In this document: positions 21,801 through 44,477 of the stretch, in pieces
Layout: every line of letters begins with the position of its first letter
Numbering within the stretch: position 1 is the first letter of the stretch
From: Eledone cirrhosa
Lineage: Eukaryota
Reading direction: 5' to 3'
DNA length: 64,000 nt
NCBI GenBank assembly: GCA_964016885.1
Contig: CAXHJY010001609.1
Span: 1-64,000, forward strand
The notes under the pieces: model-generated
The model's database searches: none
What the model saw: only the letters and a program-made list of their open reading frames with translations
What the model was told of the DNA's origin: nothing
Translations under genes and position numbers: made by a program

Positions 21801-22055
21801 CTCCCACATGGACATCAATACACATCTATATATACACACATTACTATATACACACCTAACATATCGAAGACACCCGTCGAACACGAATGACCATGTGATT
21901 GGCAACTAGAAAGTTCCCCTCTGAGGCACAGGTCTGGTTGTTTGAGGAAGACCAGCAGTCACCCAAGTATACCAGTCTACCCTCTCCATGCCACAGATGT
22001 TGTCCAAGGGAAAGGTAATGGCTGATACAGCTTGGAACTTCACTACATATATATA

Positions 22056-22951
22056 AGAGGTGTGTCAGAAAAGTTCCAGGACTGATGTCACAAAAGATTT
22101 ATTTCAAACCCAAACTTCACACTAAGAGTTATCTCCTTCAAAGTAATCCCCCTGGAGTATGTAACTGTAATCTTAGCTCTCTGCAGCAATCAAACTTTTT
22201 TCTTCATAATTTTATATACATGTCCTCTGTTTCAGGTCGTCAAGCAATGAGCACAGAGCAACGAACAAACTTGAAAACTCCGTCAGAAACACTGGGATTG
22301 CTGCAGCAAGTGTATGGAGATGAGACGATGTCACGCTCACGTGTTTTTGAGTGGTGCAAGAGGTTTAAAGAAGGATGTGACGACATGGAAGATGACCCCA
22401 GGAGCGGAAGGTCCTCAACAACCAGGACTGAAGTCAACATTGAGCGCGTCAGGCAGATGGTGCGTAGCAATCGTCGGCTGACTGTTCGACTGATGGCAAA
22501 TGAGCTGGGCATGAATCGGGACAGCGTGTGGAAGATTCTCACTGAAGATTTGGACATGCGGAAAGTCTGCGCGAAGATGGTGCCAAAACTGCTGAACGAT
22601 GACCAGAAGGGTCAACGCGTGCAAGTGTGCCAGGACATCCTCGAGTGGCTTGAAACTGAACCAGACTTGCTAGGGACAGTCACCACCGGTGATGAGTCAT
22701 GGATCTTCGAGTACAACCCGGAGGGGACCCGTTTTGAAGACGTGGACAACATCAAAAATGCTATGATGATGGAACTGTGGAGGGTCCTGGAAGAATCCTT
22801 CCAGGAGTGCATGCAAGCGTGGTAGAAAATGATGGAAAAGTGCATTAGACTCCAGGGGGATTACTTTGAAGGAGAAAACTCTTAGTGTGAAGTTTGGGTC
22901 TGAAATAAATCTTTTGTGACATCAGTCCTGGAACTTTTCTGACCCACCTCA
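22056..22951 (+). mobile_element. Internally deleted mariner DNA transposon with ~100-bp inverted ends
   Basis: TA-flanked TIRs GAGGTGTGTCAGAAAAGTTCCAGGACTG; ORF 22085..22825 has the HTH region (SRSRVFEW..GR), KVCAKMVPKLL and TGDESWIFEYNPE; most of the catalytic domain is deleted. Confidence 0.93.
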
Positions 22952-23194
22952 TATATATATTATATATATATATTTACACTGTCTACATTATATATCATAC
23001 ACTATATATGTTGTCCATGGGAAACTCAATGGCTGATAAGCTTGATACTAGTGACATCACAACATATATATACACTATATTATATATACACTGTGTACAA
23101 TATATATATACAATATATATGATGTTGTCCAAGGGAAAGGCAATGGCTGACACAGCTTGACACCAGTGACATCACAACATATATATATATAACT

Positions 23195-26189: not shown

Positions 26190-26765
26190 CCAGAACCAAC
26201 CGTGATATAGAGACCATAAAGACGGCCGTCGTTTTCATAGTTAAAGCCTTAAATTACCTCTCATACATGCTTTAAGTACATATAAACTCATTAAATCACA
26301 CTTTTGTATTTAAACACCAAAAACAACCAGTAACGATCGTATAGAAACTACCACCAACTATCATACCACTAATTACCAATGAGGACTATTGCCAGCCACG
26401 GTAGCCACTTGGTAATACACTGCACATCTCCCGTCAATCTATGAAGGCTTTGTAGTAGATTAGAGCAAAACACAATCAGTAAAACAGTAATGGAATGAAA
26501 AATATAAACATTTGTTCATAATTAAAGCCTTAAGATGTCCCTTCCTTACGATATACACTTTAATAACATTGAAACTTATTTAATAAGTGTAAAATTTAAA
26601 CACTTTTTATTCAGACGTACCGCGATAAGAAACTAGATATGTTCTAACGAATAATCCGCGATGTGGCGAGGATTACCGCGATAGGAAATTAGATACGTTC
26701 CAAAGAAATATCCGCGATGTAACGGGACCGCGAAAAGTGTACCGCGATATAACGGGGGATTACTG
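26190..26765. mobile_element. pogo/Tigger-like DNA transposon end (paralog at ~42670-43247)
   Basis: Terminal CCGCGATATAACGGGGGATTACTG|TA with subterminal CCGCGAT repeats; only one end seen. Confidence 0.6.
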
Positions 26766-27173
26766 TATATATACACACACAACATACATCTATCTATATA
26801 CACTCATAACATTTATTTTGATCTCTTACATTAAAATGTTGACTGAGGGTGTGACAACTGTTTCTTGTTTGAGGTTGTTCCAGTGGTTGAAATATTGACG
26901 GAAGTATTTTAAATAATAAAGACAGTCATGATAACAATATATTTTATATCACATGTAACAGTAGAATCTGATGATTGAAAAATATCACATCAACATTTCA
27001 GTTTGGAAGTTTTTTTTTCTATATATAAAAGTGGAGGAAGAAATATATTTTTCTAATGTTGTTATATATATTTTCACTTGTATATAATTACTGGGTCGTT
27101 GTAGGGTTCACATAATTATATTATTTAAAGATTTACATCAATATAGACATTAAGTAAATCTTTGTCAACTTAC

Positions 27174-37227: not shown

Positions 37228-38160
37228 TTAAGATTTCTCCTCTGCATGTATGAGTTTGTGAGTAGTTAGGCTACTTTCCCCAGAGAATGATATACCACAG
37301 ATATCACAGTGACATGGCTTGTCTCCTGTATGGGTACGTTTGTGGCTAGTTAGGGGACCACGTTGAGAGAATGATTTACCACAGATATCACAGTGATATG
37401 GCTTGTCTCCTGTATGGGTACGTTTGTGGCTAGTTAAGGTACTACTTTGAGAGAATGATTTACCACAGATATCACAGTTATATGGCTTGTCTCCTGTATG
37501 TATACGTTTGTGTCTAGTGAAGGTACTACCATCAGAGAATGATTTACCACAGATATCACAGTTATATGGCTTGTCTCCTGTATGTATATGTTTGTGGCTA
37601 GTTAAGTTACTATTTTGAGAGAATGATTTACCACAGATATCACAGTGATATGGCTTGTCTCCTGTATGTATATGTTTGTGGCTAGTTAAGTTACTATTTT
37701 GAGAGAATGATTTACCACAGATATCACAGTGATATGGCTTGTCTCCTGTATGTATACGTTTGTGTTTAGTTAAGTGACTACCATCAGAGTATGATATACC
37801 ACTGATATCACAGTGATATGGCTTGTCTCCCGTATGTGTGCGTTTGTGTCTAGTTAAGGTACCACTTACAGAGAAAGATTTACCACAGATATCACAGTGG
37901 TATGGCTTGTCTCCTGTATGTGTACGTTCATGTGTAGTTAAGTGACTACTTTGAGAGAATGATATACCACAGATATCACAGTGATATGGCTTGTCTCCTG
38001 TATGTGTACGTTTGTGTCGAGTTAAGTGACTACGTTGAGAGAATGATTTACCACAGATATCGCAGCGATATGGTTTCTCACCCGTATGGGTATGTATGTG
38101 AGAAGTTAGGGTACTACTATTAGAGAATGATTTACTGCAGATATCACAGTGATATGGCAT
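37228..38160 (-). CDS. C2H2 zinc-finger gene B, open 310-aa frame with 11 fingers (upstream part to the ancestral ATG at 38495 is frameshifted)
   Basis: ATG at 38160; 11 tandem fingers, one with C>S; HAEEKS terminus; indels between 38160 and 38495. Confidence 0.7.
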   Translation of the reverse strand: MPYHCDICSKSFSNSSTLTSHIHTHTGEKPYRCDICGKSFSQRSHLTRHKRTHTGDKPYHCDICGISFSQSSHLTTHERTHTGDKPYHCDICGKSFSVSGTLTRHKRTHTGDKPYHCDISGISYSDGSHLTKHKRIHTGDKPYHCDICGKSFSQNSNLTSHKHIHTGDKPYHCDICGKSFSQNSNLTSHKHIHTGDKPYNCDICGKSFSDGSTFTRHKRIHTGDKPYNCDICGKSFSQSSTLTSHKRTHTGDKPYHCDICGKSFSQRGPLTSHKRTHTGDKPCHCDICGISFSGESSLTTHKLIHAEEKS

Positions 38161-39708
38161 GCCTCCTGTATGGGTAGGTTTGTGATCAGTTAAGTAACTG
38201 CTGAGAGAGAATGATTTACCACAGATTTCACTGTGATATGGCTTATGTCCTGTATGGGTACGTTGTGAGAAGTTAAGTCACTACTTCGAGAGAATTATTT
38301 ACCACAGATATCACAATATGGCTTATCTCCTGTATGTATAACTTTGTGAGTAGTTAAGGTACTAAGTTTATTAAATTATTGACCAGATATCACAGTGATA
38401 TGGCTTCTCTTCTCTAACCTTCGTCGTCTCAGCAGGAATACTAAACACTTTAGATTGTGTTTCGCATTTAATCTTCTTTGTCAATTATTTTCCATAATTA
38501 TTCCTTCTTCAACAGAATATACAGATGTTTTCCTTGTAATTTTTTTTATATTATATTTCTTATAAAATATTTCTTCTTCTATATTTCCCTCAACTATATT
38601 TCAGTTAACATCTGAAAATAATACAAACTTCTTTTTCATCCAAGTTTAGTTAAAATACAAAATCATCTCACAGTGAAGAAAATAAACTCAGTTTTGAGGA
38701 AATATTTCACAGTAATATTACGAGAGATTTATATAAACAGTGTTATATAAGTTCTGCTTAGAATGTTTTAGTTTTAAAATGATGATAAATAGAGGTGATG
38801 TATCCAAGATTGAAAATAATAATTTATCCCAATGTCATCTGGTATTCTGAAATAAGAAAGAAACAGTATGAGATAATACAGAATACTTTAGAAGCAGAGA
38901 TAGATTTAACAGTGGAAATTTTATATTTCTATATTGGTAAATTGTAGACTACCTTGAGTAGAAGATTATGGAAGTTAAAGGACCCCATAGCCAGTGACAA
39001 ATTTAAAAGCCTATTACTTGATGCCTTTGACAATAAGGAAGATCAATTAGAGACATGCAATATAGAGGAACAGTGGCAATCCTTGAAAGTGAACCTGCTG
39101 AAAGCAACAGTCAGTAGGCACCTCTAACAAAATACACCCCCACCCCCTTAAATGTGAAGTTATGTTGGTACCACAACATCCAGTCTGAAACAAATGAGGT
39201 CGTGTAGGTGTCACGACAAAAATAAAAACACAGTCCACGCTGTAATGTGGCCGTGTAGGTAACACGGTAAAAACCTCCCAGTCCACACTGTAAATGTGGT
39301 TGGTGTTAGGAAGGGCATCCAGCCATAGAAAACCCACGTCCAAACCCATGGATAGACGTTAAACGATGATGATGATGATGTATATATACACTGTGTACAG
39401 TATATATAATACCCTATATATGTTGTATGTTGTCCAAGAGAAAGGCTATGGCCGATACAGCTTGGCACTTGTGACATCACAACATAAATATACACTATAT
39501 ATATTATACAGTATATATACACTATATATATATGTCCAAGGGAAAGGCAATGCCTGACACAGCTTGGCACCAGTGACATCACAACATATATATACACTAT
39601 ATATATATATACACTGTGTACAATATCTATCATACATTATATATGTTGTCCAAGGGAAATGTAATGGCTGATACAGCTTGGCACCAGTGACATCACAACA
39701 TATATATA

Positions 39709-40722: not shown

Positions 40723-43300
40723 TGCACCAAAGAATTCTTGATTACTGTTATGTATGGAGGAGTGAAGGATAAATGGAACAACCCCGAATAAATAAATGAA
40801 TATGAATCTGTGAGTTACCAAGCTCCCATGCGAAGCTTTAATTCAGAGACAGGAAGCATACACACTCCCCCACAAAAATTCACCCTCTCCCAGAAATGAT
40901 GGCAAATGTCCAAAACTCTTAGTTGGCAGCATCAACATAAGCACAATGGAAGGAAGGGAAGGAGAAATTATAGACATGCTAGAGTGAAAGGATATTGATG
41001 TATGCTCTGGGCAAGAGACTAGATGGAGAGGAGAGTCCACTAGAGTCCTTGTAGGCGATCTGGAAAAAGTCTTCGACAGAGTGCCCCTTGCTATAATCTG
41101 GTGGCCTTTTAGAAAACTAGGAGTAGATTATTGGCTTGTGAAAGCTGTACATGCCATGTATAGGGGAGCAGTCAGCAAAGAGTTAATAATTACTATAGCG
41201 GGGAATTTAGCATACAGGTCGGTGTCCACCAGGGCTCTGTTCTTAGCCCTCTCCTGTTTATTATAGTATTGCAGGCTATAACAGAAGAGTTTAAGACCGA
41301 ATGCCCATAGGAACTCCTATATGCGGATGATCTTACACTTATAGCTGCATCTATGGCAGAACTAAAGAAACAAGCACCACCAAACTCTGGGAGAGCTCTG
41401 TAGAAACAATAGACAGCTTTTGCTACCTAGATGACCGAATAAGCAGCGGAGGTGGTTGTTCTGAAAGTACAGTAACCAGGGTAACGACGGGATTGAAGAA
41501 ATTCAGGGAGCTATTGCCACTGCTAGCTACAAAAGGCTTTTCCCTCAAAATGAAAGACAGACAGTATGATGTGTGCATACGAACAGCAATGTTACATGGT
41601 AGTGAGACCTGGGTGCTGTGTGTAGAAGACTTGCGTAGATTAGAAAGAAACGAAGCTTGCATGCTCCGATGGATGTGTAATAGTAATATACGCGAACAGC
41701 AAAGCATTAACAAATTGAGAGAGACTGAGCATCAGAGGAATCAAATGCTGTGTGCAGGAGAGGAGGTTGTGTTGGTATAGACATGTGATGTGTATGAAGG
41801 ATGAAAGCTACATAAACAGATGCAGAGCACTAGAAGTCGATGGAAGCCATGGAGTGGGGGGACCCAAGAAGACCTGGGATGAGGTGATGAAAGCTGACCT
41901 TACCCAATTGCACCACCCGAAGGCGATGACACCGGACCGTGACCTCTGGCTTCACACAGTAATATAGAAGACCCGACTTCTCACGGGTACAAGCCAAAGC
42001 TGAAGCATATAGACAATATGCCCCCACCCTCTCCCACTGTAGAGTGGCCATGGAGGTGTCACAACAAAATAGCACCCATCACTCACTGTGAAGTTGGTGT
42101 TAGGAAGGGCATCCAGCTGTAGAAATCAAGCCAAAATCAGTTCCCATCTGAGCAAGACAAGGTCACCCTACCTGGCACTGCCCACAACAGGACAACCTGT
42201 CGAACCCATACTACCTTGGAAGAAGGGACGTAAAACAGTGATGATGATATACATATATACACTGTGTACAGTATATATACACTATATATATATTATACAG
42301 TATATATATACACTATATATGATGTCCAAGAGAACGGCAATGGCCAATACAGCTTGGCACCAGTGACGTCACAACGTATATATATATACTATATATATAC
42401 ACAATGTATATATACACTATATATATTATACAGTATATATACACTATATATATTATACAGTATATATACACTATATATATATGTCCAAGAGAAAGGTTAT
42501 GGACGATACAGCTTGGCACCAGTGACATCACAACTCATTTCTACAGCTGAGTAAACTGGAGCAACGTGAAATAAAGTGTCTTGCTCAAGGACACAACACA
42601 TCACACGGTCCGAGAATTGAACTCACCACCTTTTAATTGTAAGCCCAATGCTCTAACCACTAAGACAGGATACGTTCCAGAACCAACCGTGATATAGAGA
42701 GACCATAAAGACAACCGTTGTTTCCATAGTTTAAGCCTTAAAATACCTCTCATACATGCTTTAAGTACATATAGACTCATTAATACACACTTTTGTATTT
42801 AAACACCAAAAACAGCCAGTAACGATCGTAGAGAAACTACCACCAACTATCATACCACTAGTTACCAATGAGGACTATTGCCAACCACGGTAGCCACTTG
42901 GTAATACACTGCACATCTCCCGTCAATCTATGAAGGGTTTGTAGTAGATTAGAGCAAAACACAATCAGTAATGGAATGAAAAATATAAACATTTGTTCAT
43001 AATTGAAGCCTTAAGATGTCCCATCCTTACGATATACACTTTAATAACATTGAAACTTATTTAATAAGTTTAAATTTTAAACACTTTTTATTCAGACGTA
43101 CCGCGATAAGAAACTAGATATGTTCTAACGAATAATCCGCGATGTGGCGAGGATTACCGCGATAGGAAATTAGATACGTTCCAAAGAAATCCCCGCGATG
43201 TAACGGGACCGCGAAAAGTGAACCGCGATATAGCGGGGCATTACTGTATATATACACACACAACATACATCTATCTATATACACTCATAACATATATTTC

Positions 43301-43920
43301 GGCAGTGTCATGGTATTAGCTGTCAGAAGTGAAAGTAGAAGAAGGTGACGTCATTCGTCAACCTTCTCAATCCTTTATTTCCGTATCACTATTCCCTTTA
43401 TTTATGTTTAGGATTTTCTAAGAGATACGTTTACGATGAGATACACTTATTAAAAAATAATATGGGGACCAAATAACCCCGTAATTTTCGAGAGAAACGA
43501 TAATATACAATCTTATTTAACATGTGTATTAAAAACTACACTAGCTGTTACAATTGTAATTAACGTGCAAGAACTTAAATGAAAATATAGGTGGCCCTTA
43601 AAAGGGCCGGTGTTGAACTTAAATTTGTTTTCTAATTTGATAACCATGACTTGTTTCAACACCGGCCCTTTTAAGGGCCACCTATATTTTCATTTAAGTT
43701 CTTACACGTTAATTACAATTGTAACAGCTAGTGTAGTTTTTAATGCACATGTTAAATAAGATTGTATATTATCGTTTCTCTCGAAAATTACGGGGTTATT
43801 TGGTCCCCATAAATAAAATCATAAACGTAAATAAACGGAATAGTGATACGGAAATAAAGGATTGAGAAGGTTGACGACTGACGTCACCTTCTTTCTGACA
43901 GCTAATACCACGACAGTGCC
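43301..43920. mobile_element. Fold-back non-autonomous DNA transposon (GG..CC termini, 8-9-bp TSD; Merlin- or Mutator-like) with histone stem-loops
   Basis: Long inverted arms GGCA(G/C)TGTC.TGGTATTAGCTGTCAGAA; TSD ~TTTATTTC; absent from the paralogous site at ~26810. Confidence 0.9.
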
Positions 43921-44278
43921 CTTTATTTCGATATCTTACATTAAAATGTTGACTGAGGGTGTGACAACTGTTTCTTGTTTGAGGTTGTTCCAGTGGTTGA
44001 AATATAGACGGAGGTATATTAAATAATAAAGACAGTCATGATAACAATATATTTTATATCACATGTAACAGTGGAATCTGATGATTGAAAAATATCACAT
44101 CAACATTTCAGTTTGGAAGTGCTTTTTCTATCTATAAAAGTGGAGGAAGAAATATATTTTTCTAATGTTGTTATATATATTTTCACTTGTATATAATTAC
44201 TGGGTCGTTGTAGGGTTCACATAATTATATTATTAACACGCATTAATATAGACATTAAGTAAATCTTTGTCAACTTAC

Positions 44279-44477
44279 CTCCTTCACATATAATCAATGT
44301 ATTGTGTTGTTAGTTTTTACTAAACAACCGAAGAAATAATCTCTTTGTTATCAAATTAGAAGTTTCAATGTTATCAGCTTTATTTCACGACATTAACGTT
44401 GGTGTATCTTCTTCATCTTTAGTCATAAATTGATATCTTGTCAGAATGAAGTAGTGAGGCTGACTTTATGTCTTTAG
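44279..44477 (-). other. 199-nt non-coding 5' exon of ZNF gene B
   Basis: Same splice signals and length as 27174-27372. Confidence 0.7.

Follow-up and report, generated by a model that had tools for sequence, protein, structure and literature searches.

Pack-type elements, of the Pack-MULE kind, carry and amplify host fragments between or inside their terminal inverted repeats (TIRs). The Merlin superfamily of DNA transposons, related to IS1016 and IS1595, is described with TIRs of 24-462 bp, terminal GG and target duplications of 8 or 9 bp (PMC8101967), while Dada DNA transposons are described as targeting multicopy small-RNA genes (PMC3706591, PMC8869645). Histone mRNAs have been termed the only non-polyadenylated cellular mRNAs (PMC4604434, PMC9745837), and a distance of 25-60 nt from stop codon to hairpin is reported to be critical for the control of their stability (bioRxiv 10.64898/2026.10.14.759114). 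The Merlin paper (PMC8101967) contains neither ‘stem-loop’ nor ‘histone’, and bioRxiv 10.64898/2026.10.14.759114 does not contain ‘transpos’. A literature search with most subscription journals, Repbase and supplements outside its scope returned no report of transposons with histone 3′ ends and, within the same scope, none of a Merlin preference for histone genes.

We analysed a stretch of DNA of 64,000 nucleotides (the window), which at 43301..43920 holds a non-coding element without an ORF. The element has GGC...GCC termini and inverted arms of ~300 bp, which are complementary over 157 nt (99%), 79 nt (95%) and 28 nt (93%). The original prediction, made without database searches, had placed a histone hairpin on each strand, and both are present exactly where it put them: GGCCCTTTTAAGGGCC lies at 43664-43679 (plus strand) and at 43593-43608 (minus strand), flanked by CAACACC and ACCTA. 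The Rfam Histone3 model, which had been proposed as a check, matches both arms above its gathering score of 34 (43659-43703, plus, 40.5 bits; 43568-43613, minus, 40.9 bits; E ~1e-8), and these are the only two Rfam matches across the 64-kb window. The element had also been described as absent from a paralogue near 26810, and an empty site was indeed found at 26811/26812. The filled site is 9 bases longer than this empty paralogue; its left side has TATATTTC and its right side C+TTTATTTC, which makes the target duplication imperfect at the window's site. In agreement with the statement that no histone gene lies nearby, tblastn with host H2A, H2B, H3 and H4 finds none in the window. A histone gene or pseudogene body was considered for the feature itself and rejected, with no tblastn match in the window or in 169 loci. 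Elsewhere in the window (22047-22960) is a mariner-like element whose inverted ends are 112 nt long and whose ORF is internally shortened; the ends have 2375 exact matches genome-wide. The features of the locus are listed here.

26811..26812, no strand: empty paralogous insertion site; the joined flanks align at 95% across 26520-27091
37228..38277, minus: C2H2 zinc-finger (ZNF) coding exon, gene B; ORF and zf-C2H2 domain
43293..43300, plus: left copy of the target duplication, TATATTTC; the empty site has TTTATTTT once
43301..43920, no strand: non-coding fold-back Merlin-derived MITE with GGC...GCC ends, recognised by its arms, the empty paralogue, termini common to PF12762-coding elements, and sister insertions with 8-bp duplications
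43301..43417, plus: left Merlin terminal region (TIR proper), matching the ends of coding copies and the right end
43415..43454, minus: in the left arm only, distal part of the captured H4 3′ flank, which matches L088:2817-2854 at 95% over 40 nt
43461..43571, minus: in the left arm, middle part of the captured H4 3′ flank, identical to that flank in 87 of 96 ungapped columns
43572..43615, minus: histone 3′-end cassette, with hairpin 43593-43608 and AAGT box 43573-43576; 43/44 nt as in L088
43618..43654, no strand: 37-nt spacer between the arms, without ORF; a remnant of the family's internal repeats, resembling those of transposase-coding copies
43657..43700, plus: histone 3′-end cassette, with hairpin 43664-43679 and AAGT box 43696-43699; 43/44 nt as in L088
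43701..43810, plus: in the right arm, middle part of the captured H4 3′ flank, collinear with L088:2613-2719
43815..43920, minus: right Merlin terminal region, from arm complementarity and coding-copy ends
43922-43929: right copy of the target duplication, TTTATTTC, after one extra C
44279..44477, minus: putative non-coding upstream ZNF exon, with AG/GTAAGT edges; the region is repeated in paralogues

A PF12762 profile search of the genome gave 448 candidates, and among the 150 that were scored, one PF12762 family has both termini and hairpin in common with the MITE. L133 (68.8 bits; G000:C3:15.913 Mb) and L132 (70.4 bits) both have the MITE's termini, and L132, L133 and L134 contain open frames of 300-302 aa, the closest named proteins being ISXO2-like transposases of Octopus bimaculoides and O. 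sinensis (73-85%), which makes an octopus the likely host. We classify the element as a non-coding fold-back derivative of a Merlin (IS1595-type) DNA transposon; hAT, Mutator and P were dropped on the termini and the PF12762 partner, with the features of these superfamilies taken from general knowledge. The autonomous parent that had been postulated does exist as a Merlin transposase (PF12762), with its ORF ending 137 nt upstream of a sense hairpin, and the claim that a gene between the arms would end in a hairpin either way fits the divergent two-transposase fold-backs L075 and L076, in which each gene is followed by a hairpin.

The hairpin is not general among Merlins. Other Merlin families in this genome showed no histone hairpin after the stop in 24 correctly oriented copies (from a sample of 30 rows, 4 mis-oriented rows being left out), and one hairpin-less family outnumbers the cassette family by 818 to 490 exact ends. 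A partial copy of the hairpin, comprising its first 11 nt, recurs subterminally in transposase-coding copies. This partial copy, together with the symmetry of the full hairpin in both arms, could be read as a near-palindrome that serves as a DNA-level subterminal transposase-binding site and owes its histone likeness to its origin only. That is the least probable of the explanations weighed here: sister Merlin families transpose without the hairpin, and L171, L211, L232 and the Helitrons described below show it once in the stretch examined, behind the stop.

Merlins in this genome also take larger forms. L075, L076, L077 and L078 are head-to-head dimers with two divergent transposase genes, and the dimer form is also found in the hairpin-less family (L077). 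Like the other elements, the dimers are bounded by 8-bp target duplications, which are perfect in L076 and in 6/6 giant elements (one of low complexity). The giants are composites, observed as six inward-facing end pairs of 23.6-26.7 kb with matching 8-bp duplications, and more such end pairs are present.

Giant Merlins (L151-L168) on C1: G000:C1:72240579-72267247; C1:392475292-392498874; C1:155773155-155798795
Giant Merlins (L151-L168) on C2: C2:132649602-132675648; C2:101129692-101155195; C2:36344524-36369827

All six have a collinear interior of minisatellites and retrotransposon pieces in common, and a transposase is retained at one end in three of them. The idea that the giants carry histone or other host genes found no support: there was no histone match, and in one giant (36 of 49 listed ORFs) we found transposase and retrotransposon-type domains only, a VPS9 match being weak and below cut-off. 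The left end of the Merlin monomer appears to be damaged, which would favour composites. When GG..CC elements bounded by exact 8-bp duplications were sought de novo, none came up, not even the known ones, so the criteria were over-strict; viral contigs gave one distant match, without the hairpin.

The cassette can be traced to a host gene. Host histone genes end in GG(C/T)CCTTTTHAGG(G/A)CC, 19-38 nt past the stop, and over 40-41 nt three H4 genes each show a single difference from the MITE. The closest, L088 (G000:C7:67.458 Mb), is intact and agrees with the element at 43/44 nt at the hairpin; its match continues in collinear blocks to ~350 bp downstream, of which the window arms are a deleted version, and sister MITEs retain the segment deleted from them (67-68/70 nt). 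The 21 nt 3′ of the window hairpin are those behind host H4 genes, AAGT box included, with AGT at +18 in the element as in host H4. The original caveat that a downstream element is missing therefore does not hold, since a host-type AAGT box, a candidate downstream element, follows the hairpin. Because the first 40 nt of the flank are common to H4 paralogues, the flank is native to H4, and this, together with the finding of no Merlin end within 20 kb around L088, indicates a direction from host to transposon. A Merlin would have landed behind an H4 gene, captured ~350 bp of its flank, and copied the flank into both arms. The captured sequence is ~90-97% identical to the donor; the capture is thus recent, and an intact hairpin needs no selection.

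Two further observations concern the host histone genes. The H4 ORFs in L111, L115, L121-L124, L127 and L130 all start MTGRGKGG, while H2A starts MSGRGKGG; residue 1 of H4 is usually Ser, and these H4 ORFs have Thr instead. Histone clusters also occur as inverted duplications, at G000:C14:40.848-40.862 Mb and C2:142.162-142.166 Mb.

We then compared transposon ends in 406 kb around histone genes with an expectation taken from the genome average. For the cassette family, 9 exact ends were found against 0.066 expected, all of them ≤5 kb from a histone gene; for the cassette-less Merlin family, 7 against 0.11 (818 genome-wide); and for mariner, 0 against 0.32 (2375 genome-wide). Arbitrary control stretches amounting to 200 kb held no such ends. 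Both Merlin families are thus ~60-130-fold enriched near histone genes, where ends come in pairs and independent events number about half to two-thirds of the end counts, and one control element is apparently nested in a cassette-family copy.

Histone loci with Merlin ends, C2: 142.16, 153.61, 321.54-321.57 Mb
Histone loci with Merlin ends, C7: 7.88, 79.68-79.75, 93.73 Mb

At one of these loci a Merlin end lies 62 bp past an H3 hairpin. The cassette was considered as the cause of this enrichment and rejected, as the cassette-less family is enriched too; the histone-locus bias is a property of Merlin, not of the cassette. This bias explains the capture, and it strengthens the alternative that a Merlin near histone genes took up H4 flank as a passenger, the cassette being functionless and the mRNA using AATAAA. 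Enrichment of the cassette-less family, set against its absence in mariner, means that capture needs no benefit; the MITEs hold 100-200 nt of H4 flank past any signal; the capture is recent enough for the hairpin to be intact without selection; and the same family hauls 23-27 kb of repeat cargo. We nevertheless consider such a passenger rather unlikely, for reasons that emerge from the coding copies and from other transposons.

The signal that the host itself uses was drawn from 36 distinct histone 3′ ends (L081-L130). WAGT occurs at +14 to +22 in 26/36 of these (shuffle mean 3.1, max 10), and a second motif, GAT(A/G/T)(T/C)(G/A)C, occurs near +35 to +44 in 11/36 (shuffle mean 0.39, max 3), including 6 of the 28 ends that remain without H4. 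The host box near +16 reads WAGT (or TTGT) and the second motif is GAT(A/G/T)TGC-like; neither is of the purine-rich vertebrate type. We infer that these boxes pair with U7. The Rfam U7 model had no match in the genome and none in any control either, and a guessed U7 pattern gave 7 matches against 6 in the control. SLBP is encoded in the host genome, at G000:C13:30.099 Mb.

Of the captured flank, the coding copies retain just 64 nt (95% to H4), made up of hairpin, AAGT and second motif. Wherever a hairpin follows the stop, this 64-nt cassette is present (24/24 rows, from 22 distinct copies), in sense orientation and at a stop-to-hairpin distance of 137 nt in 16/24 rows (range 115-458). The native A/C-rich 5′ flank is replaced in coding copies by T-rich TCTAATTT, and Rfam Histone3 scores 34.0 bits behind the transposase, equal to the cut-off. 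The hairpin in the transposase 3′ UTR is predicted to fold, with pair probabilities of 0.85-1.0 (0.83-1.0 for H4). A further class of hairpins upstream of the gene faces away from it and is cut before the second motif in 18/20 rows, against 3/43 rows in the downstream class (repeated loci included in both counts). A passenger leaves unexplained why the cassette of the coding copies is trimmed to the conserved host signal.

We think it on balance probable that the transposase mRNAs would be ended through the SLBP/U7 pathway and would thereby be coupled to S phase or to oocytes. The cassette behind the transposase stop would end the mRNA as histone mRNAs end, with SLBP binding and U7-type cleavage giving a non-polyadenylated transposase mRNA. 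Such an mRNA would be produced and translated chiefly during S phase, or be kept in oocytes, the times at which a cut-and-paste element gains copies, and lineages keeping the hairpin and downstream boxes behind the transposase would be favoured. The argument rests on the repeated sense placement of the hairpin behind the stop in unrelated elements, and our confidence is held down by an AATAAA, by the long distance and by the many Merlins without the hairpin. The AATAAA stands ~71 nt past the stop and ahead of the hairpin in 21/24 rows, so that the transposase mRNA may be polyadenylated upstream of the hairpin, as a passenger cassette would have it, and the 137-nt distance falls outside 25-60 nt. 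Hairpins occur, moreover, at places that require no mRNA end, namely in antisense orientation ahead of the gene and in each of the two MITE arms.

The presence of both AATAAA and hairpin, which C. elegans histone genes also have (PMC1924863), suggests another way in which the hairpin might work without being a cleavage site, namely by SLBP binding or as a fail-safe terminator for transcripts that read through or are polyadenylated. It would then serve maternal storage, control translation or dampen the read-through that comes from both element ends, which would suit the outward-facing hairpins that coding, dimeric and giant elements have at each end. We judge this improbable, given that prior cleavage at AATAAA would leave the hairpin outside the mRNA and that the retained downstream boxes favour cleavage over binding alone.

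Processing of the transposase mRNA by the histone route gains from the recurrence of the hairpin in other Merlin lineages. From 522 metagenome relatives the best 80 were taken, giving 56 usable loci, three of which have a perfect sense hairpin past the stop, at 18 nt (L232), 56 nt (L211) and 84 nt (L171); the other 53 are without a histone hairpin. No antisense hairpins were found among the 56 loci, and 344 kb elsewhere held no canonical hairpin and six weak non-canonical matches. The hairpin rule was loosened after two of the three matches (L171 and L232) had been seen by eye, and the stricter first rule (U at loop position 1) gave 1 match, missing these two. The three hairpins have Rfam E-values of 2e-6 to 4e-5, below the gathering score, and at the gathering score there was none in 20 of the 80 loci, L171 being among these 20. 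No histone coding sequence lies in the three hairpin-carrying loci. L171 and L232, both metagenomic loci, have the CTTT loop given for C. elegans histone hairpins (PMC1924863), and the hairpin of L211 is followed by a purine-rich GAGGAAGA. The four carriers, with the octopus family, are 39-49% identical; on a quick tree three changes are needed, and a single clade is rejected (AU p=0.005). The quick trees were made after near-copy removal, first with 64/107 rows and then with 32/87 rows for the AU test, the 64-row tree having been inspected before that test was made. L171 is sister to the octopus family (99), yet its loop type differs. With an octopus H4 locus as the source of its cassette, the octopus family either acquired the cassette anew or replaced an older one.

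Some details of these loci were also observed. In L211, degenerate AACCCT repeats lie past the transposase 3′ end (L211:2505-2958). In L232, the CTTT-loop hairpin is followed by AAAAGT and TTGATGTCG (L232:1041-1085), which resembles the octopus two-part signal; the closest named protein is an Octopus bimaculoides Merlin (65%), and the family was not found at high identity in G000.

Histone hairpins also occur outside Merlin. A generic hairpin pattern matches the genome 786 times and its reversed control twice, so the hairpin is not a chance occurrence. We examined 20 matches with variant loop or stem, drawn from the first 100 listed in the genome pattern search, of which 14 were in one repeat family, three in a second, two in a third and one in a Merlin. 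The first two families encode a PIF1-type helicase, and in these PIF1-coding Helitrons the hairpin lies 275 and 499 nt past the helicase stop. In the second PIF1 family it stands 275 nt after the stop and ~200 nt ahead of a terminal hairpin and CTAG, which we take to be a typical Helitron end. The histone hairpin is separate from this terminal hairpin and CTAG end. In an alignment of nine Helitron carriers, the hairpin together with the two bases that follow it is the sole invariant block, and the flanks are unlike host histone flanks (tested for the first PIF1 family). Among L299-L318 (e.g. L313:4009-4024, L318, L300), the two PIF1-coding families and one other carry histone hairpins; L303 and L307 are family B, and in L313 the segment from stop to hairpin contains a GTGAGT...CCATAG pair suggestive of a 3′ UTR intron.

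That the hairpin recurs in three other Merlin lineages and in Helitrons, sense-only, behind the stop and in unrelated flanks, is left unexplained by passenger capture. We tentatively extend the reading of an mRNA ended by the histone route, as something that may well be so although we would not assert it: unrelated DNA transposons would repeatedly have taken a host-matched histone 3′ end, so that their enzyme is made from a non-polyadenylated, SLBP/U7-processed mRNA and transposition is coupled to DNA replication and egg provisioning, and the bias of Merlin for histone loci would supply the signal and renew it once a new host has been reached.

The copy in the window is a different matter. A search of the 3.0-Gb genome gave 866 candidate MITE copies, 40 of which were scored. 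Among the best 30, 25 have the same two flanks as the window copy, 4 lie at a second site with the 8-bp duplication CAATTATT, and 1 (L005) is a recombinant whose left flank belongs to one insertion site and whose right flank belongs to the other, and which likely arose by recombination between two MITE insertions of the ZNF cluster. With 25 of 30 at the window's site, most near-identical copies reflect segmental duplication, and the window copy appears to have spread mostly via a duplicated ZNF-cluster segment and not via transposition. Dispersed insertions of the same MITE subfamily have ≥7/8 duplicated bases in 8/12 rows (two rows being one site). Exact genome matches number 66 for a window-type 31-mer and 490 for the family terminus.

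The MITE RNA is predicted to fold into one duplex (-429 kcal/mol, z -45). By equilibrium prediction, the pair probability of the hairpin within it is 0 on both strands, and it is still 0 when the RNA is ended 40 nt past the hairpin; the paired arms are thus predicted to hide both window hairpins. The second host downstream motif is deleted from both window arms. In 26 copies (the 25 at the window's site and the recombinant), the sense and antisense hairpins each have 6/416 bases changed, and with divergences of 1.4% for the hairpin and 1.9% for the whole element, the hairpin is not clearly better kept than the remaining element across these duplicated copies. It is likely that the cassettes of the window copies are inert.

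The minus-strand hairpin is sense to ZNF gene B, as had been noted, the C2H2 exon being on the minus strand as well, and from the splice-like edges of the upstream exon the MITE likely sits in a ZNF intron. The MITE might on this ground truncate the ZNF pre-mRNA at the sense hairpin and have been co-opted as an attenuator across the ZNF cluster, where 25 of the 30 best copies stand at one site. We regard this as very unlikely in view of the predicted hairpin probability of 0, the deleted second motif, and the equal decay of sense and antisense hairpins, near the element mean. The same evidence of a masked hairpin, a lost second motif and no clear extra conservation speaks against a working RNA end being handed to the ZNF intron by this MITE, as the earlier suggestion on MITE copies and host introns would have it. 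What the window itself holds is a modest finding, a MITE that is likely inert and owes its spread to segmental duplication.

If the transposase mRNAs do end by the histone route, they would be a natural exception to a stem-loop/SLBP/U7 route held to be for histones only, with non-histone substrates, and the hairpin would be a simple way for cut-and-paste or rolling-circle elements to act at DNA replication or in oocytes without poly(A). Even if the cassette is a passenger, its capture is traced to one H4 locus, and histone-type ends are scattered through the genome by the hundred. There also remain a candidate downstream element in two parts for the histone genes of the octopus, the histone-locus bias of Merlin and the giant composite Merlins.

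Compared with described systems, the family shares with Merlin its GG termini, 8-bp target duplications, long TIRs and single ~300-aa PF12762 transposase. It differs from described Merlins in that a captured H4 3′ end is present in its arms and follows its transposase, in the enrichment of insertions near histone genes, and in composite forms of 23.6-26.7 kb. Like Dada, it is a DNA transposon tied to a multicopy gene family (PMC3706591, PMC8869645); unlike Dada as described there, its bias is regional only: about nine of several hundred cassette-family insertions lie near histone genes, at varied distances and with no fixed target site. Unlike that of Pack-type elements, its cargo is an RNA-processing signal behind its own gene and not a coding fragment. 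With the metazoan histone 3′ end (RF00032; SLBP, U7 snRNP) it has in common a stem of 6 bp with G-C at its position 2, a loop of 4 nt with U at its position 3, ACC past the stem and a downstream box at the distance found in H4. It departs from that signal in having a non-histone ORF upstream, at 137 nt, and an AATAAA before the hairpin.
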